NCBI GenBank assembly: GCA_002633005.1
Contig: NMRA01000161.1
Coordinates: forward strand, 65,712 to 129,711
Source of the DNA: Phoronis australis
Taxonomy: Eukaryota; Animalia; Phoronida
DNA: 64,000 nucleotides
Direction of reading: 5' to 3'
Translations under genes and position numbers: made by a program
Notes under the pieces: generated by a model
What the model saw: the letters and a program-made list of their open reading frames with translations, nothing else
What the model was told of the DNA's origin: nothing
Database searches by the model: none
Shown here: piece by piece, positions 6,289-61,097 of the stretch
Layout: each line of letters opens with the position of its first letter
Numbering within the stretch: the first letter of the stretch is position 1

Positions 6289-7249
6289 GTTGAGTATTGA
6301 TTTAAACGTGTTAATATACTGTGTATTAAAACAGACATGTGTTAGATGCCTTGGAAACAAACTGGCTGAATTGTTAAATCCGTTCATGTAGCTGCGTCAA
6401 CTCCTGTAAACATGTAAAAAGTAGCGAACCTCACAAAAGTCTACCAAATGTGCAAAAACCAATGAGCTATAAATAACCTCACCGTTAAAAAGTGCCTTTT
6501 TACTTTGTCACGATGTACAGATTCTGACAACGAATAAGCTTTCAAATGTGATTAAAACATCTTCCATGCCGAATATTCCCCTCCGACCCAGTCAGAAATT
6601 ATCTTTACCACGTCGGCCTATAAGGAATTGATGTCCTGATGGGAAGGTCTCGATGTGTTTCACATGGAGGTGGTGTTTGGCTACAGAAACACCGTGTCAG
6701 GGTTAGCCCAACGTAGAGTCATCTGGGAAATCGGGGAATTTAACCTGTAATTCTTTTTGTTATACAAACTTGAGATATAGAGTATATACAGTGATTTAGA
6801 TCCGTTGCCTCCAAATAAATGCAAACTTTGATGGTCACGGAATCAGAGCCCCTGGTTTAAACTTTGAACTCGAAATTGAGCTCGAAATTTTTTATTAAAA
6901 ATTATACTAAACCCTGTTTTGGGGACTCTACTAAGCATTACCGGCCTCTCATTTGTCACACGTTGGATATTATGGTTCTCGGTGGGTGTTAATTCACAAG
7001 CACTTCTCTGGAAACTTTCCTAAAGCGCAGGTCACGATTGCTGTTTTTTGCAGACTTTGAAAGGATTTCGAATTCTGCTCCAAAGTTATGATGGTTTACA
7101 AAGCACTATTTTGTTTCTGAGCACTGGACGAAAAATTCAAATCCAAAATTTCTATCAATAGGCCATAACTGAGCCTGGTATTTTTTAAAGTTTCCATTCT
7201 GGTTCTGTGCAAACTCACTGACAGAAGTTGAGTGTGGGGTTTAGTTTAA

Positions 7250-14928: not shown

Positions 14929-15116
14929 AATGGCATGTCGTAGGAAGAATTTTAGGTTTGCCGGAGTTCAGAATGGAACCGACTGTTGGTGTAGTTATCA
15001 GTATGGTAAACATGGCGGTGCGTCTAGTAGTCAGTGCAACGTCCCCTGTTCTGGAAACACTAACGAAAATTGTGGCGGCGTGTTGCGAAATTGGGTGATG
15101 CATAGTAAAGACCCTG
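14929..15116 (+). CDS. Exon: C-terminal part of WSC domain
   Basis: [36 protein letters not shown] matches the WSC pattern; tgtag| acceptor, G|gtaag donor; phase 2-1. Confidence 0.9.
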
Positions 15117-18100
15117 GTAAGCTTTCTCGGGAATTACACACATTTACGGTGTCGTAATGACATTATTAAGGGACACGAATCAAGGTTGTGAAGCGTTTAC
15201 GTGCACTTAACTGCCATAAAGTGTGCAATTCCATAAGTCCGTGGATTTTTCGCGAAGATCCTAGACATATACATGTTCTTTTCTTACAATAGAAATGATT
15301 TTGACTTTACGGTTGGATACATTAGCACACAGCCATAACCAGCCATAACTCATTTTTAATACAGCTCAGTGGTCCCATACCAAATAGAGACTTGCATAGT
15401 ACCCATGGGTTCTTTATCGAAAGTTGTGTCCACCCTGAGTAAAAGTTATGGTGACCGAAAGAAGATCGATGATCTTGGCTAGGAGACGACGGCTCAAAAG
15501 CCTAGTGACCAAGTAATCTCAACAATCGTCTCATCCGGCTGGAGGCAACTCCCGTTACTGGCCCAATAGTAGACGTGTTGACAGGCGGGGGGGGGGGAGG
15601 CAGCTCGGACCCAATTATGACTGGGGATATGGAATTTGATAATGTGCCACCGGAGGGGAGTGGCGGAAAAGTGTTGACCTCGAGAAACGGCCACTGATAA
15701 CCTATAGAGAATCTCAGCATCTGGTTTGATGCAAAAGCATGTGAATAGGCGTGATGTTTCTCAAAAGTCTTCCGTAGCTCACAAATACCGCGAGACCGGT
15801 ACTATCTGTTTACATCGGATTCAATCCGGCATCAAAGCGGATACGCATGTCTCCATTGCTTCAGACTTTACCGACACGCTTACCTCTTAGACGGTTGATA
15901 CTAACTGAAGTAAGTTTCATGAACAGTGACTTACGACTTTTTAAGTCATCAAATTGGTCTCACGCTCGGCACAGCAATTTCCGAAATATAATAAAATCTT
16001 ACTTGTGAAAAGGTCCAAATTCTCCGAGAACATGCACGTGGCTGTTAATTACAAGAAGAGTTTCATGCGGTCATACTTACATGGCCAAACCTTGTTTTTT
16101 GTGAAGTGGGAGTGCAGAGAGGCAATCTCCTGTCTTATTTTTTTGTTACTTTCATGATACTGTCTTCATGCTTACTCGCGAAACACAAGCAACGATTTGT
16201 CTCTCACCTACTCGATTTTGCGGCATCTCGCGAAAGTCACAAAACACCAGCCATATCGAATACTCCAATGCATTGTTCAATGATAAGATTTAACACATCT
16301 GATTTTGTCGGCATTTTACTAGAAATAACTTTGTTACGTGTCTTGTGATTTATTGATCGTCTGGTCAGTGGATGGCGGATGGACACAATGGGGTACATGG
16401 ACGACATGCAGCGTCACTTGTGGAATTGGTGAGCGATTTAAAGAACGTTGGTGTACCAACCCGCCACCTGCAGGAAGTGGTATGCCATGCCGTGGTTTAG
16501 CCATCGCCCCCGCATCTTGCAACACAGGGATAAGTTGCTTTCTTCCGCAAGGTTTGGATAATTTATTACACATTGGGTATCGTAAATGTGTGTGTTATAT
16601 CTGGTTCCTTCTGTGAAATATTCATTTGTAGAGCTGTGTCCCTGAAATTCCCTATACAACCTAAAATACATATTTCTCTTGTTGTTTTATTTGTCCCCAA
16701 TAATTTAGCAAAAACTATTGGCTGGTGCAAAAGTTATAAACTATAACAAACAAAAAAAATCCGACGTTGCGGAGCCACCTACGTGTACATGCAGATTCGT
16801 TTACTGCATTTTAAGGTCTGGCTACTTACATGTATGGTCCAGGGCCTTGCATATTTAAAATTTGAAACCTCCGTGTCTATTCAGAGAGGGGTTCTTCACT
16901 TTAACCACGAGATCCTCTATGAAAACCAAGAACTTTCTCTGTACAGTACCCTAATATTTCCTGTCTCGAAATAGTTTCCCGCACCGTCATTTAGATTATT
17001 AAACACTGCCGAACAAAACAACAGCCATTCGCCCGCCATATGATTTCTGAGTGTAACTAAGATACAAATCTCCACATTCTCTCATTGCCGCACGAAATGT
17101 GATACACCACTCCACTGAAATAACCGCGCTCAACTTTGTCCTTGGGGTGCACAACTTTTGAGCGCGTCAACATGCATGTGGGCTATTCTAAGCCGATGCG
17201 CTTTACAAATTCTGTCTAGCTGCTCGGAGAGATTGTTAACGTACATGTACGAGACAACACGGTGGTAGAAAGTCTCCTGCGCTCCACACGATCATCCCAA
17301 GGACAGAGGCTCTGTAAATATCCGAACCCGGGTTACAGCAGTTATTCGGAGCCCTGCCAATTGGGTCTATTCGGAGAATTCTCCTTGCGGTGTCGCTGCT
17401 GTACTAGTGGTGATTGAATTGCGCATGCGTCGCTGGCTGCATGTAAACAACTGGTAAAACATGGAATTGTTATCAAAATAAGTCGTTGCGCAAAGCCTTT
17501 TTATTGCTATTTTCTCTGGTGCAAGTCTTCGACAGGTGGTCACAAATTACCAAAAGACCTAAGGTTACGACATTCATGGAGCATTGCGGTCAAAAGGGTG
17601 AACCAACTGACAAAAAGTGTGTGGATGCCGAAGCCGCTTTGGGAGACTACATAACGTAACTTGGTAAGTTTTAAGCAATCAAGTTTCTATCGACATCGTT
17701 CGGTGATGTTATCCCCACCAGTTACCCCTCTGAATAACGGGTTTATTGAATGGAACTAAGTGTTTCTTTTCGGGAAACTCACACAGCACTCGGATACCGG
17801 GTAAGCTAGCAGCACATATTCACATATTGTACGTTCTCCAGGGGTGGGAATGCGCCCAATATAAAAAGTGTATGGTACGTGACGCTCAGAAGTCAAGAAT
17901 GACTTTCACAGCACGTTCTATTAAAAGCTATGCCATGTCCAATAAAATTCTCTAGACGAGTGAGTTTCCTTATTTTATGGCGGACTCCATCCTCAGGACT
18001 ACCAGATTAGTTACTGAATTAACCGATGAATAAGCTATTCAGTAAACGTTATAACATTGCATTAGAATAAAAATTGACACCTAGAATGAATTTTACATGT

Positions 18101-21100: not shown

Positions 21101-24100
21101 ATGCTATTATTCGAAACTTTTTTTAAACTGTGGTCTTTTCCTGTCAAGAAAGTATTTTCATGTTGTCACATTCAACGTACAAGGACGTCATTCATTTCTA
21201 GTGAATGGTGTCTGGTCGCAGTGGTCGCAGTGGAGCCGTTGTGACGTCACGTGTGGAAATGGAATCACGACACGGAGTCGCCAGTGCAACAGCCCGGCGC
21301 CGTCCAATGGCGGTCGGGTTTGTCCTGGCAACGACACCGAGGTCATGACATGCCACTTAATGTCGTGTCCAGGTGAGATGTTGACAAGCACCCATGTTTA
21401 TGACGTGCATGCCGTCTAAACATTTACCTGCTGATTAAGGAAAGTCGAAGCAGAAACCGTCATCAGTCAGCGTGAATTCAAACAGCAATGCAGCTAAAAT
21501 GACAAATCTTACGAAAACCTGTTGCACGCACCCAAATAGTTCGACCGCTGCAAGACGTTCCTCACTTGGCACGATTTTTTGAAAATCGAGTCGGAGTAAA
21601 GTCCTACCAAGGGGATCTAGATCCTTACCTTGGAGTGAGCATAATGTTATTTGCCACCCACCAGTCATAATCGTGCATTATAACAATAATACAAAATCAC
21701 ATGGGGTATTTGTTCTTTCTACGCAGGTGATGGCGGTTGGTCAGAGTGGGGTAACTGGGGGACGTGTAGCGTCACTTGCGGGGGCGGCACACGTTCCAGA
21801 AGTCGGTTGTGCAATAACCCCTTTCCGTCCTCTGGCGGCAAACCTTGTGGTGACTTCAACACACAGGCGGACGCATGCGGCAACGGCATTTGTCCTGGTA
21901 AATTATCTAAGTAACATGTGGTCTCGAGCACATATTTAGAGACTCATTGATTCAAGCACAAATGCATGTACCTATCGTAAGGAATTAGTCACCGACTTCA
22001 AATGCGCATAGTCATTCCTATGTCATGAACCTCTAAGCTAAACGAAGGAATCGTCTCTGAAAACTAGACCTAGTCGGCTTACCCGGATTACGCCTACGCT
22101 AGTGGACATGTTCGTTTACAATTGTCGTTGAGTGACAGCTTACTATTTGGTTGTGTTTGGCTTTTCTGTTACTACAATCTGTCCCACGTGGCATCCTTGT
22201 CATGTGTTTTCGAAATGTTTATTTCGACAAAAACAATAATTCTTAAATTATTTACGCGATAACAAGAACTTGGTCCACACAGTTCACGGTGGGTGGTCCC
22301 CCTGGTCGGCGTGGGCACAATGCGACGTTACATGCGGCCAAGGCTTAAAATGGCGAATGAGAGAATGCAATAATCCTCCACCGAGTTCAAATGGTAAAGT
22401 TTGTGCTGGGATGAACTCAGACAGTGCGAACTGTAGAGCCGCCATTAACTGCTCAGGTAGGAATTTTCAAAAACATTGCCGGAAGGGAATTAGTGTGGTT
22501 CGAAATCTCTCATAGAAATCACAGTGAAGGCGTGTCTTCTCTTATCAACAGTATAATTTAAAACAGCCGGTGTATCTACTTGGCGTTTTGTTTTCATGTT
22601 GGCTGATACTGAAATGCATATCTTGCCACTTCACAATTCTTTTCCAGTCAATGGAAATTGGTCAAGCTGGTCGTCGTGGGGCTCTTGCTCTGTAACGTGT
22701 GACATTGGCGTAACTAGACGACAACGAGAGTGCAACAATCCTGCGCCAGCTTTTGGAGGCCTCACATGTCGAGGAGAAAGTTCAGACAACCGCACGTGTA
22801 ATACACATCAAAGCTGTCCGGGTACGAACGATTTTATCAGAGAAACTACAACTATATGTAACTAGCCAAAGTCTAACACTCTAATCAACCCTTTCTAATA
22901 AAGACCAGTTCAGCGTAGAAACATCCTATTTTTCAACAAAAAGTCAATCCTAATAGTCTTGCAATGGTGATCTACTTCTCACAGGAGTTTAACGTAAAAA
23001 CTGAAAATACTGATGTTGAATGGCAAATCGCATGGCTTAGGTAAATATTTCACCTTGACACCCCCAGAGTTTCAAAGGACAATCCCTGAACTTCAATATT
23101 CTTGGCATTGTTACCTGTTTCTACATGTACAATGAGTTTGGTACCACACTTAGAATTGCTGATTTTGACGTGGTAAAGATTAACAATTGCGCGGAATCAA
23201 ATGCAATAACTCCGCAACAGCAGCTGAACACTGTGGTCCTGAACCAAATCCAGGCCGTTAAGTAGCCTAGCATGTTCAGCGTATTTAATTGTTCAAGATG
23301 CCTGCCTTCAAATCCATTCAACGTATGCAAATCGTAATGTTTGCAGTGCATCTTTTTATAAACATACCTGTAATCACTGTAACAAAAAAAATTGCAGGCA
23401 ATATGATACACCTTGTACCAGACGTGCGCAGGCCTCGCAGGTGGGCCCATTGCACTAATCACCTGGAACTATTTTTATGCTTTATTGATATATAGTTAAA
23501 ACCGAGCTGAGGAGCTAGAAACCTGGCTCAAGGGTTTAGCAGTATGACCTGGTGCAATCACTGTAGCTGAGTAGCCAAATAGTACAACTAAAGCTGCACT
23601 AAGCGGACAAAGAACCAAACGTTTGACTTTATACTGTATATTTACTAAACTAAGCCAACAAATCGCACACTGGTTTCATATCCTTTGCTGGCTTCATCGT
23701 TGAAATTTGCCAAAATCAGTAAATTGAAAATTGGCAAAAATTTTCATTGTTTGAAAAGTCAGCACCTAAATACTAAATGCCTATCTTAACTACCAAACCT
23801 GTTAAGGCCAGATACTATACAAACACATAAAAACTCATAGTTATTCCTAACTTTGAAGATGTCTCAAAGTGGCCGGATTTTGCTGAAAGAAGTGCCGAAA
23901 AAGTCATATGTGCAAAATCATCATCAAAACTAAAACATTAGGCCTGTGTCAGAAAAATCAAAGGTGACCTAGTGCATATCTAGGGGTACCTCAAGCCCTC
24001 ATAAAGTATCAGGAAAATCTGTGGCGTTCGATGTAGAACCACCCGTAGGTGCTTCTTAATCTGTACGTCTTTGGCTTACTAGTAAATAGTTGGTCTTATT

Positions 24101-27100
24101 TCAGTTAACGGTCAATGGTCGACTTGGGTATATTCTACCCCATGTGACGTCACCTGTGGCAACGGAACCCGGGTTAGAGAAAGAGTTTGTGGCGATCCGG
24201 CGCCGATGTTTGGCGGTTCCAACTGTTCGGGCGATTCCGCCGAGACGGTGAGCTGCACTAATGGAATCGAATGTCCCGGTACGAGATTTTTCGTCGCATA
24301 ATCAGTTCTTATAGTAAAGAGTGTTTCGGTCTGCATCTTGTCATTATCGTATGTTTATGTAACAAATCGCCGAGAGCGCCATCATTATGTGGACACAACT
24401 CACGAGTCATCATGGAAAGCGCATACATTGAATTTTTAATTTTTTAAGTTTTTGAATTTTCATATTCTCTAAAAACGATTATTCATTTACATGTTTGTCA
24501 CAAAATGAAATTAATTAAAGTTAATAGTTGGCATTTTAACAACATCTCTGAAAATTCGTTTCGCAGGAGGGCTGCTTACCAGGCTTGAATGGTGGCTCAC
24601 TGTAGGAATATGGCAGCTTAGACTACAAATTGTCCAATAATCACACCACTACATAAAGCACCTTTATCAAAATACACGATAGACAAGCGGACTCACTGGA
24701 TTTGGGTCTGTGAAGCACTCATACTTTAAGAAAAAAAACTCAAATGTTGCAATACACCAACTGAAAAATTTGTTATTTTGGGGTAGAAACTATCCTCTGG
24801 TGTGTTTTTAGCGTTTTCAGTAAAATTGATTGTCAGTGAAAGTTGATGTGATAACTGAAAAACTTTAAGCACGGTTATCTCAGTTCATTATTTCACAGTA
24901 GTGGCAATGCGCTCAAGTTTATTCTCAGCTATTTTTGATCAAATTTGACGAAATCAAAAATTGAAATCTAATACAAATGAGTTTCAAATCCGTGCCAGGG
25001 TCATTGTTTAAATTATTATAAGTTATTTTGATATCAGTGGGAATTTTGACTGAATGTTATGTATTTGCCAAATCTCAATACATTAGTAAAATAGCAGTAT
25101 TTGATGATGGCTTTATGGTGGTAATTGTTTATTGAGTAAGATTTTGAAATATGTGACAGCAATTTTTGGAAAAATCGTCAAGAAAACATAGCTTTCTGGG
25201 AAAATTTAAATAAGTTAAATAGTCACTGGAACAATTTTTTTTTGCTTTTTCTCATGTTGTGGGTCATACTTAAGGCTATACATATTAAAACTGACACATT
25301 TTCAAACAGGCTGTATCTATCTCACTTATAAGAGCGTAAAGCGAACCAACGCCAAGGCTAGACAGCGTGCGTGACAAAGAACGTGAAAAACAGACTCTTA
25401 AAAATGGTTCTTTGCCACATTTTTGGTTTGACTGTAAACATTTTAAATTCTGTCGATGTTAAAGCCCTTTTCTTTTAGTTTCAAAAACGGTATGTTCGTC
25501 ACTTCGTCGATTTTCTAAACACGTTTCCTCAATTAGTATTGCGAGATGTAGTAGTGACATAGTAATGTTATATGAAAAAACTGACCTTTGACGTGAACAG
25601 ATTACTGGGGATTTTCAAGTAGCGGCCAGTCTGACTTCTCTGAGCTCATATGTAATATTAGGGGCGGAAAATTCGAAAACTGTATTGGGATGGAGGAGTT
25701 GATATTTTGCCTGTCTCCCCATTAAAATTCTTAAAAAATTCAAAGTGAATAACTTCCACCTTAGCGGCTAAATAAAGTAAATTCACCACGATCTCTTTAA
25801 AAATATATTTTTACGAGTTTTGCGTTCCATTCCTCTTTAACAATTTGTCAGAACTCCCATGTTTCACGTGCAGCGTGTCAGTGAGCTTTTTTTTGTTTTG
25901 AAGACTGTACTAAAATTTCAAGCCCAAGAAATCAAATGGTTTGAAAACAAATAAGCTAAACTTTTTGGCCAGATTTTGCTGTTTTATCGAATGTTTTACA
26001 TGTGATCAGACATTTTAGTTTTATTAAAGGTCAAGTCATTTAATTGAAGACAAAACACTAGTATGTGCGTGGCCTTGACTGGTGTGTGTGAAAGGGAATT
26101 AACTTGATGCGAATGTGTCGAGCCCCCAAGTTAAAGCATTCCTGCAATGTGTTTGGCACGTTTTAATATCTTGGATCGTATATAATAATGCTGTTGTAAC
26201 ATAAAATTTAGATTTTTTAATTCTTGCGTTTATTTCTTGATTAAACGTAATCACCTTGATGAAAAAGTACCAAATTGTTGGTAACCAAATTCAACGTGTT
26301 TATGACCATGGTGTGAAGGGTTTAAGTAGACCGTTGTAGCAGCTTACATGTGTACCGTGTAATTTANATATTTTGCCTGTCTCCCCATTAAAATTCTTAA
26401 AAAATTCAAAGTGAATAACTTCCACCTTAGCGGCTAAATAAAGTAAATTCACCACGATCTCTTTAAAAATATATTTTTACAAGTTTTGCGTTCCATTCCT
26501 CTTTAACAATTTGTCAGAACTCCCATATTTCACGTGCAGCGTGTCAGTGAGCTTTTTTACAGTGTATTTCACTCCTACTGAAAACAACTTAGGGAAATTT
26601 AAAAAAAGCAATACACACAATCGGCACTTTTCACTCAAAAATCACCACTTCTCTGCCGATGTTAAACGTAAGGCAACAATAGATTCTGAAAGCAAATTTT
26701 CTACAGATTCCAAAAACATGTATGCAGTCCAGGAGGGCTACCTGAAATTGAAGCCGACTTTTCGGTAGTTGCCAGCAATGCAGAGATGCAGCAGGAATCG
26801 CCATCGTGAAGAAGAGTGCAGCTACAGCCAAACGAGAGATCTTTTCTCATTCGCAACATGTTCACAAATCCAAACAAACCAGATTCACTGAGCCCACATG
26901 CAACGCCTTCCTCAAAAGTACGCCAAGCCTGACTTAACTCTAGAATTTAATTTTTGGCACTGCATTATGGCCACTGTTGCTGCCTAGTTGTTAAGTGCCA
27001 CCTCAAGTTCTATACGGACACCATCTTGAATTTTGCAAAATGACTGTAGTGAAAAAAGTTTCTGTAAAAATCTCAAGCTCTGAGCATCCTAGAACTTTTG

Positions 27101-30100
27101 TTTTGAAGACTGTACGAAAATTTCAAGCCCAAGAAATCAAATGGTTTCAAAACAAATAAGCTAAACTTTTTGGCCAGATTTTGCTGTTTTATTGAATGTT
27201 TTACATGTGATCAGACATTTTAGTTTTATTAAAGGTCAAGTCATTTAATTGAAGACAAAACACTAGTACATTTGTGCGTGGCCTTGACTGGTGTGTGTGA
27301 AAGGGAATTAACTTGATGCGAATGTGTCGAGCCCCCAAGTTAAAGCCTTCCTGCAATGTGTTTGGCACGTTTTAATATCTTGGACCGTATATAATAATGC
27401 TGTTGTAACATAAAATTTAGATTTTTTAATTCTTGCGTTTATTTCTTGATTAAACGTAATCACCTTGATGAAAAAGTACCAAATTGTTGGTAACCAAATT
27501 CAACGTGTTTATGACCATGGTGTGAAGGGTTTAAGTAGACCGTTGTAGCAGCTTACATGTGTACCGTGTAATTTATATTTGTTTACATGGTAGCTTATGT
27601 TCCAGTCAATGGGAACTGGTCCAGCTGGTCGTTGTGGGAGGCTTGTTCAGTTACGTGTGGCGTTGGAGTAACCACACGACAACGGGAGTGCAACAATCCC
27701 AGGCCAGCTTTTGGAGGTCTTACATGTCGAGGAGAAATTTCAGCAAATCGCACGTGTAGTACTCAACGAAACTGCCCGGGTAGGAATACGTTTGCAGTTT
27801 GGAGGGATTTTTCCAAAGAAGCTGATACTAGATGTCTTTTCAAAGTCGACTCTGATTTGGTTTCAAGAACAAATAAAACCACAGTTCGTTAAAAATGGGT
27901 AATGATATCAATAACCCGCACGCAGATGTAATGTTACTTCGATTTGCAGCATTGTGCGTTTAGCTTTACTATCGAAATACAATGTAAAAACAATCCCCTC
28001 ATTTCGAAGTTGCTGATTAAATTGATTGCTGGAAATAAAAGTCTGCCCATCAGTTTTAACGGTTCGCTAAGAAGTCTTAGTTGTTCTTTAAGTTAGCGGC
28101 CGGTGGTCGAGTTGGGTGTATTCGACCCCTTGTGACGTCACCTGTGGCAACGGAACCCGCGTCAGAGAAAGAGTTTGTGACGACCCGGCACCGATGTATG
28201 GCGGTTCCAACTGCTCCGGTGATTCCGCCGAGGTGGAGAGCTGCACCAATGGAATCTACTGTCCTGGTAAAGTTTTCCATCGCGAAGTCAGGCCGTGCAT
28301 CCAGGAATGTTCTTTTCCGGATTTGTCTTTAATATAAAATTGTCTTATGTCATCGAGACCGTCATCACCTTCTGGATACAGTCACTGAGTCATTACAACA
28401 TCGAATGAGGACCCAACACTAAGGCTGGACAATTTTGTGCTTAAGGCCCACAAGTTTTAGTTAAAAATAAGTTTGACGCCATGTCAGTTGCTCTTGTTTT
28501 ACGGAATACCATCTTTCAATCTCTTAGCAATTGTCAGATTTCCGTATTCCATGATCATCGTATGTTTTACAGCTATCTGATTATAGTCTGTCATTGGCTT
28601 GTGGGTTACAAAATGGCAAAAGCACCTAACAAATTTGTATTATGCAGGAAAAGTTTGCACGCAAACATGGGGTCAAATAGTTTGTCGTACATCTGTATAT
28701 TTAGATAATGTTTTAAGTGAAGACGCTGCCTTTGAAAATGCCATTTGCAAAGTTAATAGTCGTCTCAATTTTTTATACAGATGTACAAATTTGGTGACTA
28801 CCGTAGACCAATTAAATCTTTGCTGACGTCATTTTTATCAGTCATTTTGGTTATTCGGCAGCCGTTTGTAAATGTAGTTCTGACATACATGTAGAAGGGT
28901 GGCGTCCGAAAACGGAATGCAAATAGGTCAAGGTACAAATGTATCTATATTGGCTTCGTCCTGGTTCTCGGCCCTATACTCTCAAAAGTAGAATAGAGTC
29001 CAGTTGCTGAAGACCTCGCGCAACTGATCGCCGTGCCAAGAAATTAAAACACACCCGGACGTTTTACACCATTCTTGACATAACATCCAACAGCCTAGAG
29101 ACTTACATGTACGCTCGTAGAAGCTTAAGCTCGTTTGCAAACCCTCGTGTGATTTCCCTTGAACCGACGTTTAAAGTGTTTGCTGGAAATAAATGTCTGC
29201 CCTTGAAATTTCACGACTGGCTAAGAAATCTTAGCTCTTCCTTCAGTTCGCGGCCAGTGGTCGACTTGGGTATATTCGACCCCTTGTGACGTCACCTGTG
29301 GCAACGGAACCCGCGTCAGAGAAAGAGCTTGTGACGACCCGGCACCGATGTATGGCGGTTCCAACTGCTCCGGTGATTCCGCCGAGTTTGTGAGCTGCAC
29401 CAATGGAATCAACTGTCCTGGTAAGAGTTTCCATCCCAAAATGAGTTGGTGTATCAAAGAATATTCCTGTTCGGGTTTGTCGTTACTGTAAAGTTATCAG
29501 AAATTGTCCAAATCGTCATCGCCTTGTGGTTACAGCTCATTAAAAGAGCATATGACGACCCAATAAAGAGGCCAGACAATGTTGTGCTTAATGCCCATAC
29601 GTTTAATTTTCGTTACAAATAAAATTTAACGCCATGCCACTTGCTATTTCTTTTACGGAAAATCATCTTTCAATCTCTTAACAATCGTCAGATTTTTGGT
29701 ATTCCGCCTTCCACGTGTTTTGCTAGTGACTTGATTATAGTTAGTCATTGGCTTGTGTATTAAAAACTGGCAAAAGTTTGTAATACAGGTACATGTATAT
29801 GTGTGTTACGCAGTGGAGAAAAGTTTGTATGTAAACATATGGTCAAATACTTTGTCGTATCACTGGATAATGTTTTAAGTGAAGACGCTGTCTTTGAAAA
29901 TCCCATTTCTAAAATTGACAGTCGTCTCAAACTTTATACAGAATTTGGGCAAACTTGACAAGTGGTTAGACTAATTAGTTATTTTTGATAACGTCATGTT
30001 TGAAGGTCATTTTAATTAATCGGCAGTTGCTGGTAATTTTGGGGGCCGTGCCAGGGAAACTAATTTAACTAAGACAACTCTTAAATTTAAGTCAATTTTA

Positions 30101-33100
30101 AGATCAAACTTAAATTTGTCTCAAGTCCGTTTCAAGAAAAATATCCTACATGTAAATTTTGATTTAAGTTTTGTCTTAATTTTGACTAATCAATTTGAGG
30201 CGAACGTGTGGACTTCCCAACTACGATGGATTTTTTGCACTTTTTGAGGTTTTGGAACGTCTATAATAATGTATGAACGAGAATAAATTTGTTCATAATA
30301 TGTGAGCCCTCGTGGAAAGCGCGGTAATATTGACGTTTTTGTTCGTTAAAATCATAACTTACGTAAGATGCAGTAGCTGTTTATTGTTTTGTATCCATGG
30401 TGCGTGACACTTAATAAAAATGTCATCGCTTGTGTTCCAATCAACGGGAGTTGGTCAGACTGGTCGTCTTAGGGTAATTGCTTAGTCACGTGTGACTTTG
30501 GCTGAACTAATCGTCAGCGAATGTGCAACAACCCCGTGCCAGATTTTGGAGGCCTCAACTGTCTAGGTATTCAGCAAAACTATCCGGGTGCGAAAAATTT
30601 TGCAATGATTTTTTCAAAGAAACTCATACTCAATATCTTTTTACAATTCGTTCTGGTTGCTTTTAAAGCATGCAGAAAGTCACTATTCGGTAATTAAATA
30701 ATAAAACGAATAGTAGTAGGTTATCAATAACCCACATCCAGGTGTAATGTTACATGTACTTCGATTTTTGGCTAAAACACCGTGTTGTGTACTTGTCTTT
30801 ACCATTGAAGTAAAATGTCAAAATACCTCACACATCAAACTTGCTGTTTAAAGTCTTTCTTGAAAATTAATGCCTGCATGTTTACGCATTTTTACGATTC
30901 CCTAATCAAGCTTAGATCTTCTTTCAGTAAATGGTCACTGGTCGTCTTGGGCATTTTCGACTCCATGTGACGTCACCTGTGGCAACGGAACCCGTGTCAG
31001 AAAAAGGGTTTGTGATGACCCAGCACCGATGTTTGGCGGTTTCAACTGTTCGGGTGATTCCGCCGAGGTTTTGAGCTGCTCTAATGGAATCCATTGTCCC
31101 GGTAGGTTTCTCATCACAAAAATCAGATCTTGTTTCAAAGAGTGTTTCTTTCTGCGTTTGGGTATTTTTTGTACACTTCTCCTTAATTTCGTCATAAGGG
31201 TTGAGGATAAGAAACTGGTCAAAACCGAGGCAATATAATTGTTGGTTCGAAGCAGCGACCAAACCAAGTCGGTATTCTAAATGTGCTAGACGGCGTGGTG
31301 CAAAATTGTAGGTAAACATTTAGTCAAATGTCGTGGTATTATTATTATGTTTTATGTTTTAGTCAGACAGCAAACTGGTGGAAAATTTTATTTAGCATCA
31401 CGAATACAACATAAACTGTGCCCCAGAGCACCTCGGAAATGGCCACTCAAATACAAAAAATGGGCAAAATTTACCGATTTTTGCATTACAATGAAGCTTT
31501 AAGAAAACTCTTTTGAAAATGCAAAGACCGTTCTCTGATAGCGATGTTCAATTTCTGCATTAAAATCATCAATATTTTTTATATTTTCCGTTCTTGTAAA
31601 CCGTTTTGAAACTACGTATTTACTTATACTATTGGAACCCTTTGAACCAGAATTGACCGAATTTGTTTTAACTTATACAATAATAACCCAAAAATTGAAT
31701 TAAACATTTTGAACATGTCCGACCAGGATGCGTGTGACAAATCATTTCTAATCGGAGTTAGGCACAAATGATGTAAGTGACAATTTATTGCTCATATAAG
31801 TACTGTGATATTTACGATTCTTTAGATTTCTTTAACTTCAGACAATTTAATTGAAGTTAAGACAACAGCATGTGTTCGGTTTAAACGTGAGTGTGTAAAC
31901 GGGCATGATAGGGACGGGAAAGTGTCGCGGGACCTCATGTTAAACACCACTTTTGTTCCAGTCAATGGGAATTGGTCAAGCTGGTCCTTGTGGGGTGCTT
32001 GCTCAGTTACCTGTGACGTTGGCGTAACTACACGAGAACGAAAGTGCAACAATCCCGTGCCAGCATTTGGAGGTCTCACGTGTCGAGGAGAAATTGCAGA
32101 AAATCGCACATGTAGTACTCAACGGAAGTGTCCGGGTACGAAAACAATGTCTTTTCGCAATCGACACTGATTTCTTTAAAAAACACAGAAATCTATAATT
32201 CACTAATGAAAACAAAAATCGTACCAGTCGATACGCTGTCAAACTAGGAGAACTACAAGCAGTATTTAACCTTATGTTAATTACCTGATCTCGAGTTGGG
32301 AGCATTTAATGATCCATACCCTGTGCATAATGTGTAAAATCGGAAAAAAACAATATCAGCACGAGTCATCCACATGGTGTTAAGTGTTCAAAGTCGTCAG
32401 TTATTGGGACGAGTTTTCCCGTAGTTTATGGCATTGCAACAAGTTTGTGGTGGTTATGACAACTCAGTGTTTGACTGCGCAGTCGCACTTTTTACCTTCC
32501 CCAGGTATGACATAAATTTGTACATATCCCGTGTTGCTGGATATTGCACACTGACGCTAAGTACGTTCATACGGCACACTCAGGCCCGTGGAGATAAGAA
32601 AAATTCAATAAATGTCCCTTTCTTCTATTTCCTAGTTTTTGAGAAAATGAATTCACGATTGTGGCATGCAGTTTTGTAAATGAAGATTTAACGATGTTGA
32701 CAATTCAGTCACTTGTCACAACAGAGTAAATGTTGGTTTTAAGCACTTGGACGACTTTGTTGGAAATTAATGCTTAAAAAGATACCAAACGCGGTTTGTG
32801 CATAGTAAGCTGCAGTGTATATTGAAATCGACTGTTCCATAGAGGTCTCTGAAACCCAATAATGCTGTGTAACTCTCGAGAACCTCCAAACGTTTAAAGC
32901 AAAATTTGTAAACACCTTTCAATATTTGCTAATCGGAAATCTGACCAACGATGTAGGCGAGTTACATGGTAACTGTGGTGACAGACCGCACTCCAAGAAC
33001 CACAGCATCCAATAGGGAGAATGAGTTGTTTGTTCAATCATGCTTTAATCGGTCAGGTGAGACGTCAATGGTGCATTACAAGATAACAGAATGGGGATTT

Positions 33101-36100
33101 GTTGCAAACTCAAAAAACATTATTTGGTATCCTTTCATCATTTCTGACTATGGAGGGAGAATTTTATAAAACGTTGTTATTGAGGATAGGACCCACACGG
33201 CCTCAAGTTTGTGTTCCACTTTGGAGGACCTATCAGCTTCCAATTTTAATGACACTCTGTGGCCGAGATGAACAATCCCAGATCACCGATGACATTACTT
33301 TTCCGCCAATGATGCCTTGCGTGCTCCTTAAATTATCACTGCTATGAATGTTTACAGTAAACGGTCATTGGTCGTCTTGGGTATATTCGACTCCATGTGA
33401 CGTCACTTGCGGCAACGGATCTCGCGTCAGACAAAGAGCTTGTGACGACCCGGCGCCGATGTTTGGCGGTTCCAACTGTTCGGGCGATTCGGTCGAGATC
33501 GTGAGCTGCTCGGACAGAGTCAACTGCCCCGGTAGGACATGTTATTCGCAAAATCAATCAGTTCTTATGTCATTCAGTGTTCCAGTCTACATAGTGTCCT
33601 TGTTGTAATTTTATCTTGATCTCGATAGGAGACAGTCATCACCAGGCTAACACAAGCTCGAAGATAAGAAGCTGGTAAAACCGAGACTATTTTGGTTTGT
33701 TAAAAACTGGACAAATCCAGTTCATTAAAAAGAAGTCGGTAACTGCTTGCCGTTCAGTTTCCGTGTAGATTGATAATTATTGCAAATATTGCTGCTTTTG
33801 TCCAAATCAATGGGATTTGGTCGAACTGGTTGACGTGGGAAGCTTGCTCAGTCACGTGTGGCGTTAGCGTAACTACACGACAACGAGAGTTCAACAGCCC
33901 GTGCCAGCTTTCAAAGGCCTCTCGTTTCATGGAAAAAGTTTACAAAATCGCAAATGCAGTTTACAACACAAATGCATGAGTACGAAAACGTTTCCTTTTT
34001 CGGGTGACTTTGTTTCAAAGAAACTGATCCTCAATATCTTTTCATAACAGTCTCTGATTTCCTTTCAAGAAAGCAAAAAGATGCTACTCGTTAATAACAT
34101 GAGTAGTGGTATCAATATCCTACACCTCACACTCCCTGGTTAAAGTTGTTTGTTGGGTATTAATGGTTAACTTATCTTACTTAACATTTTCTGTGCACTA
34201 ATAAATCTTAGCTCTTCTTTCAGTTAACGGTCAGTGGTCATCCTGGTTACATTCTTCCCCATGCGACGTCACTTGTGGCAACGGAAGCCGCGTCAGACAA
34301 AGATCTTGTGACGACCCGGCGCCGATGTTTGGCGGTTCCACCTGTTCGGGTGATTCCGTTGAGGTAGTGAGCTGCTCCGACAGAATCGTCTGTCCCGGTA
34401 GGACATGTTATTTGCAAAAATCAATAAGTTCTCATTTCATTCAGTGTTCCAGTCTCCATACTGTGTTTGTTGTAATTTTATCTTGATCTGGATAGCAGAC
34501 AGTCATCACCAGGTTAACACATGATCGAGGATAAGAAGCTGGTCAAAACCGAGACAATTTTGGTTTGTTAAAAACTGGACAAATCCAGTCCATTAAAAGG
34601 AGGCGGTAACTGCTTGCCGTTCAGTTTCCTTGTAGATTGATATTTATTGCAAATATTGTTTCTTTTGTCCCAGTCAATGGTATTTGGTCGATCTGGTTGA
34701 CGTTGGAAGTTTGCTCAGTTACGTGTGGCGTTAGCGTAACTACACGACAACGAGAGTGCAACAGTCCCGTGCCAGCTTTTAGATGTCTCTCCTCTCATAG
34801 AAATAGTTTACAAAATCGCAAATGCAGTTTACAACAAAATTGCATGAGTACTAAAACTTTTCCTGATTCGGGTGTCTTTGTTTCAAAGAAACTGATACTC
34901 AATATCTTTTCATAATGGACCTTGATATCCTCTCAAGAAAGCAGAAAGATGCGACTCCTTAATAACAGGAGTAGTGGTATCAATATCCTTCACCTCACAC
35001 TCCCTGATTAAAGTTCTTTTTTGGGTATTAATGGTTAACATATCTTACTTAATATTTTCTGTGCACTAATAAATCTTAGCTCTTCTTTCAGTTAAGGGTC
35101 AGTGGTCATCTTGGTTATATTATTCCCCATGCGACGTCACTTGTGGCAACGGAAGCCGTGTCAGACAAAGATCTTGTGACGACCCGGCGCCGATGTTTGG
35201 CGGTTCCAACTGTTCGGGTGATTCCGTCGAGGTAGTGAGCTGCTCCGCCAGAATCGGCTGTCCCGGTAGGACATGTTATTTGCAAAATCTAACAGTTCTT
35301 ATGTCATTCAGTGTTCCAGTATCTATAGTGTCCTTGTTGTAATTTCATCTTGATCTCGATAGGAGACAGCTATCACCAGACTAACCCAAGCTCGAGGATA
35401 TGAAGCTGGTCAAAACCGAGAATATTTTGGTTTGTTAAAAACAGGAGAAATCCAGTCCATTAAAAGGAGGCGGTAACAGCTTGCCGTTCATTTCCCGTGT
35501 AGATTGATATTTATTGCAAATATTAATGCTTTTGTCCCAGTCAATGGGATTTGGTCGAACTGGTCGAAGTAGGGAGCTTGCTCAGTTACTTGTGGCGTTG
35601 GCGTAACTACACGACAACGAGAGTGCAGCAGCCCCATGCCAGCTTTTGGCGGCCTCTCGTTTCATGGCAAAAGTTTACAAAATCGCATATGCAGTTTACA
35701 ACAAAATTGCACGAGTACGAAAACGTTTCGTGTTTCGGGTGTCTTTGTTTCAGAGAAACTGATACTCAATATCTTTTCATAATGGACCTTGATATCCTCT
35801 CAAGAAAGCAGAAAGATGCGACTCCTTAATAACATGAGTAGTGGTATCAATATCCTACACCTCACACTCCCTGATTAAATTTGTTTTTTGGGTATTAATG
35901 GTTAACATATCTTACTTAATATTTTCTGCGCACTAATAAATCTTAGCTCTTCTTTCAGTTAACGGTCAGTGGTCATCCTGGGTGTATTCTTCCACATGCG
36001 ACGTAACTTGTGGCAACGGAAGCCGCGTCAGACAAAGATCTTGTGACGACCCGGCGCCGATGTTTGGCGGTTCCAACTGTTCGGGTGATTCCGTCGAGGT

Positions 36101-39100
36101 AGTGAGCTGCTCCGACAGAATCGGCTGTCCCGGTAGGACATGTTATTTGTAAAATCAATCAGTTCTTATGTCATTCAGTGTTCCAGTCTCCATAGTGTCT
36201 CTTTTGTAATTTTATCTGGATCTCGATAATAGACAGTCATCACCAGACTAACCCAAGCTCGAGGATAAGAAGCTGATCAAAACCGAGACAATTTTGGTTT
36301 GTTAAAACTTGACAAATGCAGTCCACTAAAAAGAAGTCGGTAACTGCTTGCAGTTCAGTTTCCGTGTAGATTGATATTCATTGCAAATGTTGTTGCTTTT
36401 GTCCCAGTCAATGAGATTTGGTCGAACTGGTCGACGTGGGGAGCTTGCGCAGTTATGTGTGGCGTTGGCGTAACTACATGACAACGAGAGTGCAAAAGCC
36501 CCGTGCCAGCTTTTGGACTTCTCTCGTTTCATAGAAAAAGTTTACAAAATCTCATATGCAGTTTACAACAAAATCGCCTGAGTACGAAAACGTTTCCTGT
36601 TTCTGGTGACTTTTTTCTAAGAAACTGATGCTTAAAATCTTTTCGCAATGAACTCTGATTTCCTTGCAAGAAAGCAAAACGATGCTACTCGTTAATAAAA
36701 TGAGTAGTGGTATCATTATCCTACACCTCACACTCCTTGATTAAAGTTGTATTTTTGGGTAATAATGGTTAACATATATTACTTAATATTTTCTGTGCAC
36801 TAATAAATCTTAGCTCTTCTTTCAGTTAACGGTCAGTGGTCATCCTGGGTATATTCTACCACATGCGACGTCACTTGTGGCAACGGAAGCCGCGTCAGAC
36901 AAAGATCTTGTGACGATCCGGCGCCGATGTTTGGCGGTTCCAACTGTTCGGGTGATTCCGTCGAGGTAGTTAGTTGCTCCGCCAGAATCGGCTGTCCCGG
37001 TAGGACATGTTATTCGTAAAAATCAATCAGTTCTTATGTCATTCAGTGTTCCAGTCGACATAGTGTCCTTGTTGTAATTTTATCTTGATCTCGATAGGAG
37101 ACAGTCATCACCAGGCTAACACAAGCTCGAAGATAAGAAACTGGTCAAAACCGAGACAATTTTTGGCTTGTGAAAAACTGGACAATTAAAGGAGGTGGTA
37201 ACTGCTTGCCGTTCAGCTTCCGTGTAGATTCCAAATCTAGTCGCTTTTGTTCCAGTCAATGGGAATTGGTCGAACTGGTCGTCGTGGGGAGCTTGCTCAG
37301 TTACATGTGACGTCGGCTTAACTACACGACAACGACATTGCAACAGTCCTTTGCCAGCTTTTGGAGGCCTCACGTGTCATGGAAAAAGTTTACAAAATCG
37401 CACTTGCAGTGTACAACAAAACTGCTCGATTGCGAAGGCGTCTCCTGTTCCAGGTGATTTTGTTTGAAAGTAAATGAAACTTAAATTCTTTTCATAATGG
37501 GCTCGGGTTTCCTTTCAAGAACTCAAAAAAGACGCGATTCGGTAATAAAATGAGTATTGGCATCAATATCTTACACCTTCATAATTCTACATTTAAGTCT
37601 TGCAGGATATTAATGATTAAGAAACCTTACTACATGTTTTCTTTTCACTAATAAATCCTAGCTCTTCTTCCAGTTAACGGTCAGTGGTCATCTTGGACAT
37701 ATTCTACCCCTTGCGACGTTACTTGTGGCAACGGAACTCGCGTCAGACAAAGAGCTTGTGATGACCCGGCGCCGGTGTTTGGCGGTTCCAACTGTTCCGG
37801 TGATTCCGTCGAGGTAGTGAAATGCTCCAACAGAATCGGCTGTCCCGGTAGGATATGTTCTTCGCAAAAATTAATTCCTTTGTCAAAAATTGTTCCAGTC
37901 TTCATAGTGTCCTTGTTGTAATTTTATTTTGATCTCGATAGGAGACCCTCATCACCAGGCTAACAAAGGTTCGACGATAAAAGGCTGGTCAAAACTGAGG
38001 CAATCTACTTCGTTCATTAAAACATCAAATAAATCAATCCCAATAGAAAGTCGGTAGCTTCTTGCCATTAAGTTTCCGTGTAGGTTGTGATTTAATGCAA
38101 ATCTCCTTGCTTTTGTTTCAGTCAACGGGAATTGGTCGAACTGGTCATCGTGGGGGGCTTGCTCAGTTACGTGTGACGTCGGCCTTTCTGCACGACAACG
38201 AGAGTGCAACAGCCCCGTGCCAGCCTTTGGAGGCCTCACGTGTCATGGAAAAAAATTACAAAATCGCACATGTAGTTTACAACAAAACTGCCCGAGTGCG
38301 AAAACGTTTCCTGTTTCGGGTGATTTTGTTTTAAAGAAACTGATACTCAACATCATTTTATAATGGACTCAATAATAAAATGGGTAGTGGCAGCAATATC
38401 CTACACCCCTTATTTCCTGATTAAAGTCCTTGTTGGATATTAATGGTTAACTTGTCTTACTAAATGTTTTATGTTCGCTAATAGATCTTAGCTCTTCTTT
38501 CAGTTAACGGTCAATGGTCGACTTGGGTATATTCTACCCCATGTGACGTCACCTGTGGCAACGGAACCCGGGTTAGAGAAAGAGTTTGTGGCGATCCGGC
38601 GCCGATGTTTGGCGGTTTCAACTGTTCGGGCGATTCCGCCGAGACGGTGAGCTGCACTCATGGAATCGAATGTCCCGGTACGAAATTTTCCATCACATTA
38701 TATTCAGTTGTTGTAGCAGAGATTGTTCCGGTCTGGATTTTGTCATTGCTGTATGTTTATGAAAAAAAATCGTCGATAACGCAATCATTCTGTTGACACA
38801 GCCCCCGAGTCATCAAGCAGAGCGCATACACTGAATTTTGAATTTTTGACAGTTTTTTAAATTTTTTATTGTCTAAAACTGATTATTCATTTACATGTTC
38901 GTGACAAAATGAAATCGACTTGAAAAGTTAACAGTGGTCATTTTAACCACATTTCAGAAATTTCCTTTCCTTGTAGTGTTGCTTACCAGGCTTGAATGGT
39001 AGCTCACTGTAGGAATATGGCAGCTTTGACAACAAATTGTCCAATAATCACACCACCACATAAAGGACCTTTGTCAAAATGCACAACAGACAAGCAGACC

Positions 39101-42100
39101 CACCGGGTTTGGGTCTGTGAAGCACTCACATTTTAAGAAACAAAAGCTCAAATGTTGCAATACACCAAGTGAAAAATTAGTTATTTTGGGGTAGAAACTA
39201 TCCTCTGGTGTGTTTGTAGCGTATTCAGTAAAATTGATTGTCAGTGAAAGGTGATGTAATAATTTGAAATTTTCAAACACGGTTATCTCAGTTCATTATT
39301 TCACAGTAGTGGCAATACGCTCAAGTTTATTCTCAACTATTTTTGATCAATTTTGACGAAATCAAATACTGAAATCTAATACAAATAAACTTTAAGTCAG
39401 AGTCAGAGATAGACTTTGTAATGACCCACCGCCGATCTTTGGCGGCTTTAACTGTTCGGTGATTCCACCGAGGTAGTGAGCTGCTCCAAAGGAATTGGGT
39501 GTCCGAGTATGACATTTTTAATTGCAATAATCAGTCATATATCGATCAGTGTTTTGGCTTGCATTGTTTCATTTCTGTTTTAACTTAATCTCGTAAGGAG
39601 ACAGAAATCGTCCTGTAGAAACATACTCGAAAGTTACAAACTGGCCAAACTGAAACAATTTTGTTTGGTTCCTAAAACCCATGGAAGCAAGTCCATAAAA
39701 AAACTGCTATGTACATGCGCATGTAATGGTTAAACATTGTATGCTAGCCCAATAACGCGGGAATTCACAGGACAAGACGACACAATGAAATCTGGTATCA
39801 GGCGACACTGGGTGTTTTCGCAAGAAACGCTTCCGAATGTCGACCTCACTCTAAAATGGTTTCGTATCTAGCGTACAGTTAACATCCAAGTGTTTGAAAA
39901 ATCTTTGAACAATGTTGCTAATTGCTTCTCATTAATTTGTCTGGTTGTGCAACATAATTGAAACAATTATCAAACCAGTCACCAGTTGAATTTTGAGGTA
40001 CAGTGCAAGCCAAAATGTCACCGTGCAGTTCTTGGCATGCAGTCGTTTGCTTATCCAGGACCCGCTCTATTGTATGGCAAAGGTTTCAGTGAAATGTGAT
40101 GAAAATACATGCTAGAGAATGTGTTGGTGTAGTACACTGTACGTTCTCAAGGAACTTCCGCTATATCAGCTTTGCGTTAATTGTGGGACATCGCAACGGT
40201 ATCAGAATGGCAGACGTGGCTACGTTAGTTAGAACTATCCATTCCAGTCAATGGAAATTGGTCGAGCTGGTCGTCGTGGGGGACTTGCTCCGTTACGTGT
40301 GAAGTTGGCGTGAGTGTACGAGAGCGGAACTGCAACAATCCCGTGCCAGCGCTTGGAGGCCTCTCGTGTGTTGGAAGAGCTTCAGAGAATCGCACTTGTA
40401 GTACACAACAAGTCTGTCTGGGTACGAAATCGAACTAGGTGTTTTCTTACACTGTTTTTTACATTGATCAATCATGCTCCATATTTTGTCTTAAACCACA
40501 TTGACACTGGTGGTTTGCTTTTGTCTAAGAACCATAAAGCGTATGTCATAATTGTCTTTAACCTTGGAAATCAACCTGATTTTTTACCCGCCGAGGCAGT
40601 GTGACCACGTGGCATGAGCGTCCGCTTCCTTTACTTGAGGTCGTGGGTTCGAGTCCCGCTGAGGCACACTGCTACACCCTTGAGTCAGATCTCTAGCTAC
40701 AACTCGGTTTTAACTTATACATGGATGGAACATCAAAATGTTCCAGGTAATCAGTAGAATGGGCCCACCTGGGCGGCCAGTGCACGTCTGGAACAGTGTG
40801 TACCAGACGGCCTGTAGAAATATGTTTTTATCTGGTGAACTACGCTGAGCTGTTTGGATTCCAGTGGCATTCTGGGAATGAAAGGGATAATTTAGACGAC
40901 TTCTCTGTCAATCAATTTCGCTCTTTCCAGTTAACGGTCACTGGTCGTCATGGGTATATTCAACCCCATGTGATGTCACTTGTGGCAGCGGAACCCGCGT
41001 CAGAGAACGAGCTTGTGACGACCCGGCGCCGATGTTTGGTGGTTCCAACTGTTCGGGTGATTCCGTCGAAGTGGTGAGCTGCACCAATGGAATAGAGTGT
41101 CCCGGTAGGATGATATAATCCATCATTTTAAACTACTGATGAATTCCAAATCGTCGTGAAAATGTTCCCAGGTCATTTCAACGAGACACTTCTTTCCGTC
41201 TTCGAATTTCCTTGTTACCTCAAACCATCGGTATTTTCGAATACTAAATCTCTTCTTACATTTAGCTATGAAAACGAATAAGGTGATGTACATATGATAG
41301 GTGAATACATGTACATGTATTTGTATGGTGATATGCACAATCCTTGTTCACAAAGATAATGCAAATCCAATGTTGTCCCAAGTATTCTCAACTAGAGCCG
41401 TGAACGTCCGGTCAAAAATTCAGTGAATATAGAACGCAATTCTCACGTTAAACTCGCTTTTAGCGCGTACTAACCCTGTTTTAAAGCATATCCACGCGAT
41501 CCCATTTTCTGGATTCAGGTCATCCATCCAAAAGTTGCCGCTGATGTGTACTCATTTGCAGCTGTTTTTTCTATTTTTGGACAGTTTGACAGATTCTGCT
41601 CCATCTAGTGACCATTCATGACACCAATGAGCGCTCCTATCCATCATATATTTTAACATTTTGCGTTGCTGTTGTCAATTCATTTACCTTTCTCCATAAC
41701 CGATCAGCGGTTATCTTGGACATTTGACTAACTTCGTGACGTCATCTGTGGCAACGGATCTCTAATTTGTGACAACCTGGCACCGAAGTTTGGCCGTTCA
41801 TACTGTCCGGATACTTCTGGCGGCGTTGTGATGTGTGCAGCCAGAGCCTACAGTCCTTTAAAAAAACGTTTCGCAGCTTTATAACTAATTGTCGCCATAC
41901 AAATATTTGAGAGCTTCCAAACAGTTGATGTTTCCGATGATTGTATCGGGGTGTTTGTGTTTTGTGATTGTCAGCAGCTAGTGCCCATATGGCCAAGACC
42001 CCGGGGTTTAAATCTCAACTATTTTTCGCTTTTTCCAATCTCCTTTTTGCGCAGGCTCATGACAACACGTACGCTGTACTCGAACCCTTGTGTGGATGTC

Positions 42101-60975: not shown

Positions 60976-61097
60976 TTGCGTATGCCAACTTCACGTGTTA
61001 TATTACATTTGTCATTTCTGATGTACGTTTCACCATAGACTATATTACATGGACCGCCAACTCCGTATACTTTCAGTGGACGAAATCTGTGATCTAA
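60976..61097 (+). CDS. Possible further exon, faintly SEA-domain-like, ends in TAA
   Basis: Pyrimidine tract and AG, then VAYANFTCYITFVISDVRFTIDYITWTANSVYFQ; resemblance by eye only. Confidence 0.25.

Follow-up and report, generated by a model that had tools for sequence, protein, structure and literature searches.

The 64,000-nucleotide (nt) window of Phoronis australis DNA analysed here (contig NMRA01000161.1, positions 65,712 to 129,711, forward strand) is dominated by a long tandem array of exons encoding thrombospondin type 1 repeats (TSRs). Coordinates are positions within this window. A six-frame motif scan together with self-BLAST of the window returned 36 TSR-like stretches, every one on the + strand. 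The array proper, 22648-41104, holds 11 A-type and 12 full-length B-type TSP1 exons of 174 nt and phase 1-1, the A exons (A1-A11) starting at 22648, 27606, 30441, 31962, 33807, 34674, 35541, 36408, 37256, 38122 and 40248, and the B exons (B1-B12) at 24105, 28093, 29247, 30928, 33358, 34224, 35092, 35959, 36826, 37674, 38504 and 40931. All six TSR exons scanned, which include D1 and D9 from downstream of the array, pass the TSP_1 (Pfam PF00090) cut-off of 21.6 bits (A1 45.6, B1 48.7, A9 52, A6 28.4, D1 45.7, D9 49.5). Self-BLAST delimits a tandem block at 33352..38760 (+ strand), built of ~868-base-pair (bp) units that each consist of a B exon, an intron, an A-type copy and another intron; 33352-37927 matches 34218-38760 with 85% identity over 4617 nt. 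Introns align across units 5-10 at 4-26% divergence, and the duplicated unit thus takes in the flanking introns. The initial annotation described alternating A and B exons that had been amplified together; the A/B array is real, but its alternation is imperfect, with no A exon between B2 and B3. The array is of the tandem exon-duplication repeat type, with one domain per exon and symmetric phases.

The array is transcribed and its exons are spliced in series. Four RNA runs were retrieved by species label (none by shared words), and two of these, X1 and X2, both from one study, express the gene. In both, first mates of the reads over the exons lie on the minus strand, as most stranded libraries would give for a transcript of the + strand, and every forward joint displayed has GT..AG borders when read on +. 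Transcription, on which the earlier reading depended, is thus borne out by X1 and X2. Reads of X3 and X4 fall only on repeat elements, and X3 has no exon reads. A broad mapping covered 27560-44600 and displayed 15 of 25 joints, while a narrow one covered 33300-38750 with X1 and X2 only and displayed all 15 listed joints; counts below are X1/X2 reads. The 3' end of A1 (22648..22821) appears as the loose end before B11, which is 99% identical to B1, in 12 and 17 reads of the broad and narrow mapping. B1 (24105..24278) is seen through a backward B11>A2 joint (10/13), which we read as B1>A2 because B1 and B11 are near-identical. The path continues through A2 (27606-27779), B2 (28093-28266) and B3 (29247-29420; A2>B2 18/22, B2>B3 25/16), then B4 (30928-31101), A4 (31962-32135) and B5 (33358-33531; B4>A4 27/26, A4>B5 19/8). 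Beyond B6-B9, which are considered separately below, A9 is used as a 198-nt exon (37256..37453; B9>A9 18/14, A9>B10 24/12): its old donor reads TT in place of GT, and splicing occurs 24 nt beyond the lost site, in frame, adding eight amino acids. B10 (37674-37847), A10 (38122-38295 or -38319) and B11 (38504-38677) follow (B10>A10 33/21), then A11 (40248-40421) and B12 (40931-41104; B11>A11 12/11, B12>D1 12/13), the A11>B12 joint being absent from the 15 of 25 joints displayed. Three unique downstream TSR exons are also used, namely D1 (43089-43271), D2 (44284-44463) and D3 (48690-48860), with D1>D2 at 24/26 and a loose end behind D2 that equals the D3 start (27/14). The computed path of 21 used exons from A1 to D3 has no stops, 126 Cys, lengths divisible by three and AG/GT borders throughout; it took D3 to start 3 nt upstream of the read-supported start, in the same frame. 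Two joints of the narrow mapping, a backward B11>A9 and an A9>B11 with extra letters, were set aside because they stem from reads of A11 and A1, exons outside the mapped stretch. Low intronic depth just after B10 (37850-38031; 3.3/1.2) and a few X2 reads after B5 (33532-33845) reflect some intron retention or unspliced RNA.

Six of the 11 A exons are used, whereas A3, A5, A6, A7 and A8 are not. Bins covering A7 and A8 have zero depth in X1 and X2, as does the main A5 bin; the bin with the first 39 nt of A5 reaches 0.18 in X2. A6 has ~0.6/0, about one read, where B5, A9, B10 and A10 stand at 19-40. That dead exons must be left out of the mRNA, as the initial annotation reasoned, agrees with the reads, given the joints B3>B4 (17/17) and B8>B9 (11/13) and almost no depth over A5-A8. 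Since all exons are in phase 1-1, such losses leave the reading frame intact. A6 carries no stop, and nonsense-mediated decay therefore cannot explain its absence, which points to skipping if the RNA donors carry A6. The further proposal, a cassette from which exons are chosen in variable combinations, is unsupported, and so is mutually exclusive choice: outside B6-B9 every exon has a single listed downstream partner. As for diversity generation, the reads offer no more than a minor choice between in-frame donors and the B6-B9 shortfall described below.

The counts behind the earlier view that B exons are kept while A exons are silenced are correct. All 12 of 12 full-length B exons have 174 nt, AG/GT borders, no stop and six Cys, four of the 11 A exons (A3, A5, A7 and A8) are broken, and two more (A6 and A9) are impaired. 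A3 (30441..30587), jumped by B3>B4, has its acceptor AG changed to AA, two stops and a 27-nt deletion; A5 (33807-33979) has the same acceptor change and a 1-nt deletion; A7 (35541-35714) has a single stop, TAG, and A8 (36408-36581) a single TGA. A6 (34674-34847) keeps an open frame and AG/GT and yet is unused; its fourth Cys sits at position 37 instead of 40, and the third Trp has been lost. The + strand also carries two dead B relics. One, at 39402-39506, is truncated at its 5' end, has a 1-nt deletion, lies directly after the end of a B1-like segment and is skipped by B11>A11; the other, at ~41697-41856, lacks the G of its acceptor, has a 12-nt deletion, lies under bins of zero depth (41216-42353) and is skipped by B12>D1. 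These relics put B losses at two of 14 rather than none. Per copy, unused exons then number 5/11 for A against 2/14 for B (Fisher p=0.18), compared with 4/11 against 0/12 in the earlier tally (Fisher p=0.037). Conservation of the B exons does exceed chance, since in a neutral simulation (assumed indel rate 1/600 per site) a single exon stays intact with a probability of 0.35 at 3% divergence and 0.05 at 10%, and since the ratio of non-synonymous to synonymous change (dN/dS, from distinct changes counted within each exon set) is 0.31 over all 12 B exons (46 synonymous, 49 non-synonymous; p=4e-8 against neutrality). As an asymmetry between classes, the claim mostly fails: the six used A exons are under purifying selection as well (40 synonymous, 54 non-synonymous; dN/dS 0.41, p=4e-5), and four of the five unused A exons descend from one ancestor. 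Judged from the sequences, independent losses may number about two for A (A3 and the ancestor of A5-A8) against the two B relics, and the A/B asymmetry is mostly an effect of which unit was last copied.

A5-A8 group with A9 and A10 and form one clade within that group, supported at 99 and 98 in two trees, one built from the exon only and one that includes its flanks. Change within A5-A8 is close to neutral (7 synonymous, 33 non-synonymous; dN/dS 1.23, p=0.84 against neutrality), in contrast to B6-B9 (8 synonymous, 9 non-synonymous; dN/dS 0.33, p=0.036; Fisher p=0.045 between the two sets of counts); A9-A10 have 11 synonymous and 9 non-synonymous changes (dN/dS 0.24). Pairwise differences among A5-A8 (16-23 of 174 nt) are on the scale of those in the flanking introns (mostly 9-12%), whereas B6-B9 differ half as much (7-11). 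Five derived sites are common to A5-A8, and one of these destroys the fourth TSR Cys, its TGT codon being TTT in three copies and TCT in one. The A at position -1 of the old donor is common to A5-A8, A9 and A10; the +24 donor reads GTGACT or GTGTCT in A5-A8 instead of GTGATT; and the acceptor is GTCCCAG in A5-A8 (GTCCAAA in A5) where the others have GTTCCAG (A2, A4, A9) or GTTTCAG. Because of the clade, the neutral dN/dS, the intron-like divergence and the common derived sites, A5-A8 were likely silenced once and then multiplied as passengers within the introns of a B unit of 868 bp. It is possible instead that they were silenced one by one after amplification, each by its own lesion and nonsense-mediated decay. 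The lesions do differ (acceptor loss with frameshift, a donor +5 change, TAG, TGA), and no single splice-site knockout common to the four was found. However, the four have all lost a core Cys, and their neutral, intron-like mutual divergence would mean that they evolved without constraint for most of the time since they separated, so that separate silencing appears quite unlikely.

A single silencing followed by amplification would fit a stepwise history. An A+B unit would first have been duplicated repeatedly. In the ancestor of A5-A10 the donor would then have been weakened when A replaced G at its -1 position, its role passing to a GT located 24 nt further on. Exon recognition may next have been lost in the ancestor of A5-A8, where the acceptor became GTCCCAG and the +24 donor lost its +5 T. 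Finally, the unit of a B exon plus a dead A exon would have been amplified, the stops and frameshift of A5, A7 and A8 postdating the silencing. Unequal crossover involving a two-exon unit is the likely way in which the middle of the array lengthened. Birth and death of symmetric exons, the evolutionary frame proposed at the outset, is supported by this record.

A different kind of copying may have shaped B1 and B11, which lie 14 kb apart and differ at only 2 of 174 nt (99% identity); the letter of B1 at 38618 is carried by 22 of 45 X1 reads. The similarity extends over a longer segment, 38493-39386 being 88% identical to 24094-24978 by self-BLAST. Because the truncated B relic at 39402-39506 begins where this B1-like segment ends, B11 was likely copied in from afar, truncating the B exon already in place. 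Since the exons are 99% identical and the intron that follows them only 80-94%, the comparison also suggests later gene conversion between B1 and B11.

The B6-B9 block, B6 (34224-34397), B7 (35092-35265), B8 (35959-36132) and B9 (36826-36999), all on the + strand, is where the RNA departs from the reference. Reads fall on all four exons (depths X1/X2: B6 17.4/6.8, B7 25.1/21.3, B8 14.0/16.5, B9 27.6/19.9), and the summed depth is worth ~2.7-3.0 exons. Joints within the block are B6>B7 (9/4), B7>B8 (7/1), B7>B9 (11/10) and B8>B9; those leading into it are B5>B6 (11/6) and B5>B7 (3/2, with loose ends adding 5/3 more); two more run backward on the reference, B7>B6 (4/2) and B8>B8 (0/4). Joint reads inside the block number 42 and 34. 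Set against the average of 12 other joints, these are ratios of 2.1 and 2.0 compared with an expected 3, a marginal shortfall (z -1.3 and -1.4; combined z -1.9). B7 and B8 differ at a single site in their last 75 nt, and of the four sites separating the first 67 nt of B6 and B7, three are erased by RNA alleles. With so few separating sites, the assignment of paths rests on single letters. The RNA carries many non-reference letters, three of them fixed in B5 and many partial elsewhere, and given these letters and the backward joints, the haplotypes of the RNA donors likely differ from the reference. On average, the mRNAs probably hold three of the four exons.

Skipping, alleles and copy-number polymorphism could each leave such a shortfall in these reads. 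If B6-B9 were alternatively spliced, a four-unit gene would give three-unit mRNAs by skipping of B6 or B8, and the rod would vary in length and sequence within an individual. The X1 counts fit two such paths, B5>B6 (11), B6>B7 (9), B7>B9 (11) and B5>B7 (3, plus 5 loose ends), B7>B8 (7), B8>B9 (11), and the shortfall in joints and depth is what skipping would produce. Against this, the path calls hang on single letters where RNA alleles erase the B6/B7 sites, backward joints are impossible by linear splicing of the reference, the 25-nt acceptor regions and the donors are identical in all four exons, and the shortfall is only marginally significant; we regard alternative splicing of the block as rather unlikely. 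A yet bolder version, in which these youngest exons are a nascent length-and-sequence switch, with B6 or B8 dropped, dead A exons serving as spacers and allelic variation high, we hold to be unlikely as well; if true, it would be combinatorial splicing caught at birth from a pseudoexon-carrying repeat in a recognition or adhesion rod. A third scenario is that the four-unit block is partly an assembly artefact, two alleles having been strung in tandem. The RNA does point to about three units, and nearby, at 25702-27578, local duplicates (191 nt at 99% and 483 nt at 98%) lie beside a lone N at 26367, a possible assembly join of two alleles, which suggests that the assembly can merge haplotypes in this neighbourhood. 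Yet 33352-38760 is free of N, and its unit introns differ mostly by 9-12% (one pair by 4%) as opposed to 1-2% in the suspected allelic duplicate, which leaves the artefact very improbable. Haplotype variation in unit number or sequence is a more likely source of the B6-B9 shortfall than regulated splicing.

Taken as a whole, it is probable that the window holds a transcribed gene for a long TSR rod that is serially spliced, keeps its decayed copies out of the mRNA and likely grew in its middle by unequal crossover. Its protein is likely extracellular, and the domain family would suggest a function in adhesion, matrix or binding. Several observations count against this reading. The RNA comprises two expressing runs of one study, with about a fifth of each run covered, and its donors are not the reference individual, so that A5-A8 may be missing from their DNA rather than skipped; A7 and A8 could also be included and then removed by nonsense-mediated decay. 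Splicing is not wholly invariant, as A10 alternates between two in-frame donors (for A10>B11, the old donor has 1/8 reads and the +24 donor 7/11), and B5>B7 and B7>B9 at face value are skipping of B6 or B8. The dN/dS of B6-B9 rests on small counts (8 + 9). A crude U1-pairing score fails to separate skipped from used exons, the +24 donor of A5 scoring 7.0 like that of A10 and the old donor of A7 5.5 like that of the used A11, so that the splice-site differences of A5-A8 are no more than candidate causes of their silencing. The limits of the gene are provisional, and a profile search yielded no orthologue, the best exon identity among the best 120 homologues being 43-60%.

A more ambitious interpretation takes the array for a Dscam-like or immune diversity generator, its A and B exons being optional cassettes under selection for variety. 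Every exon is symmetric, there are alleles with amino-acid changes, expression is sample-specific inasmuch as X3 lacks exon reads, and a role in binding microbes has been proposed for TSR-rich rhamnospondins (PMC5446238). Diversifying selection or inducible changes of isoform would mark an immune or allorecognition diversity locus. However, neighbours outside B6-B9 are joined serially, the unused exons are neutral pseudoexons instead of maintained alternatives, dN/dS of B and used A exons lies at 0.24-0.41 rather than above 1, and B1 and B11 look homogenised, not diversified. Such a generator is thus highly improbable, and fairly ordinary repeat-protein evolution is the likely account.

The array is embedded in further TSR exons, all on the + strand. 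Upstream lie T1 (21202-21372), T2 (21727-21897) and T3 (22283-22456), unique exons of phase 1-1 with AG/GT borders and open frames; downstream of D3 are D4 (50521-50694), D5 (52710-52883), D6 (54508-54675), D7 (55135-55302), D8 (57607-57780) and D9 (59934-60101), which have AG/GT borders, open frames and lengths divisible by three; both sets were recognised from the sequence alone. D3, D4 and D5 (48690-52883) are an older triplication of another TSR exon, at 77-81% DNA identity and all intact, and 33-bp tandem arrays lie upstream of D3 and D4. Two candidate acidic micro-exons, 54915-54950 (36 nt) and 59177-59200 (24 nt), have good AG/GT borders and phase 1-1 and would be linkers between TSR exons. 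After D9, a candidate last exon (60974-61038) with a strong pyrimidine-rich acceptor encodes a short hydrophobic tail followed by an in-phase stop, and could be a membrane or GPI anchor signal. Further upstream, and outside both RNA mappings, are a WSC-domain coding stretch (14840..15115; Pfam PF01822, E=4.3e-18) and a TSR exon of phase 1-1, T0 (16369..16551), with AG/GT and an open frame, whose membership in the same gene is uncertain. Between T0 and T1, an open stretch of 60 codons (20585-20765), whose acceptor is in phase 1 and whose GTAAGT donor is in phase 0, is a candidate exon of an upstream WSC-TSR gene; for 20585-20764 Pfam gave no family, and its Atlas matches, at 0.94, were unnamed eukaryotic clusters only. 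Since this stretch ends in phase 0 and its join to T1 would give a stop, the WSC stretch and T0 are at most tentatively linked to the array. The RNA joins TSR to TSR from A1 to D3, and the families matched among the eight stretches scanned with Pfam are the TSP1 clan and WSC only. SCO-spondin proper surrounds its TSRs with vWD, LDL-A, TIL and cystine-knot domains, and hemicentin proper with VWA, Ig, G2F and EGF domains.

Several repeats in the window resemble mobile elements. Long inverted arms at 7246-8876 and 11150-13048 (76-82% identical by BLAST, several segments 86-90%, with a 2.3-kb centre) look like a large DNA transposon or foldback element. An inverted repeat at 61254-61773 and 63516-64000, with a 400-nt core that is 96% complementary and arms 1947 nt apart, is likely a young non-autonomous DNA transposon, to judge from its structure. 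Foldback-like arms at 2736-3097 and 4056-4273 contain 21-bp tandem units in opposite orientation. A short SINE-like repeat at ~40600-40700 has a B-box-like motif and, in all three RNA runs, collects many reads that fit it only in part and come from elsewhere in the genome; ARAGORN found no tRNA, and this repeat was not called as one.

The value of the locus lies in an unusually complete, RNA-backed record of how a repeat protein changes length, which includes the rescue of decayed donors by an in-frame site close by (A9, A10), what is likely one silencing multiplied by duplication (A5-A8), and the near-identity of B1 and B11. It warns that counts of dead copies overstate independent losses and that gene models would wrongly take in A6. 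The near-matched A10, which is used, and A6 or A7, which are not, offer a ready minigene test of exon invisibility. A new kind of system would be at hand only if the B6-B9 shortfall were regulated splicing; the array otherwise belongs to a known kind. Invertebrates commonly have poly-TSR proteins of this sort with recent expansions. Of 7963 candidates, 2375 proteins matched a profile of 20 exons at E<=1e-20. The top 120, which were analysed, contain 13-31 TSRs, and those with names come mainly from cnidarians, molluscs, amphioxus and rotifers. In 45 of these 120, at least four repeats have an 80% identical near neighbour, that is, recent internal expansion, and 9 of the 120 have a two-repeat period. 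Invertebrate poly-TSR proteins with the automatic labels 'SCO-spondin-like', 'hemicentin-1', 'coadhesin-like' and 'adt-1-like' (P0204 from Crassostrea angulata, P0247, P0270, P0206) resemble the array in their 13-31 TSP1 repeats and recent internal expansions, and P0204 also in its two-repeat period (neighbour identity 0.36, next-but-one 0.89), but, compared as proteins, their exon identity to the array is 43-60%. Single-exon searches gave one match among 14 candidates for B11 and none among six for the WSC stretch, and a quick profile, off frame in 2 of 16 rows yet able to recover the five TSRs of P0001, found a TSR in none of 150 listed WSC relatives. A literature search, thin in subscription coverage and thus a weak negative, returned no title or abstract opening that describes a TSR exon array with pseudoexons.

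In the mutually exclusive clusters of Dscam1, which work through pairing between docking-site and selector RNA, neighbouring paralogous exons are not spliced to each other. The array shares with Dscam1 the tandemly duplicated homologous exons of an extracellular repeat protein, but here the joints B2>B3, B3>B4, B5>B6, B6>B7, B7>B8 and B8>B9 are all present: neighbours are joined in series, unused copies have decayed, and no one-of-many cluster is seen. The kringle IV-2 array of LPA is a copy-number array in which the number of two-exon tandem units sets the length of the protein. The two-exon unit in a disulphide-rich repeat protein is common to both, but the units here are only ~85-90% identical, each exon is a whole domain, and copy-number variation is only suspected. 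Rhamnospondin of Hydractinia likewise has tandem TSRs in an invertebrate protein, but eight of them (PMC5446238), compared with up to 31 intact TSR exons in the window, and no lectin domain turned up among the window stretches scanned. Duplicated exons occur in more than 10% of human genes and have been linked to mutually exclusive splicing (PMC5224494). Protein repeats are reported to expand usually through duplication of several domains at once in the middle of an array, with nebulin as an example (PMC1553488), which is in line with the growth proposed here. Compared with the multi-domain tandem duplication outlined there, one exon of the latest unit was here likely already dead when it was copied, so that a two-exon unit of DNA adds a single repeat to the protein.

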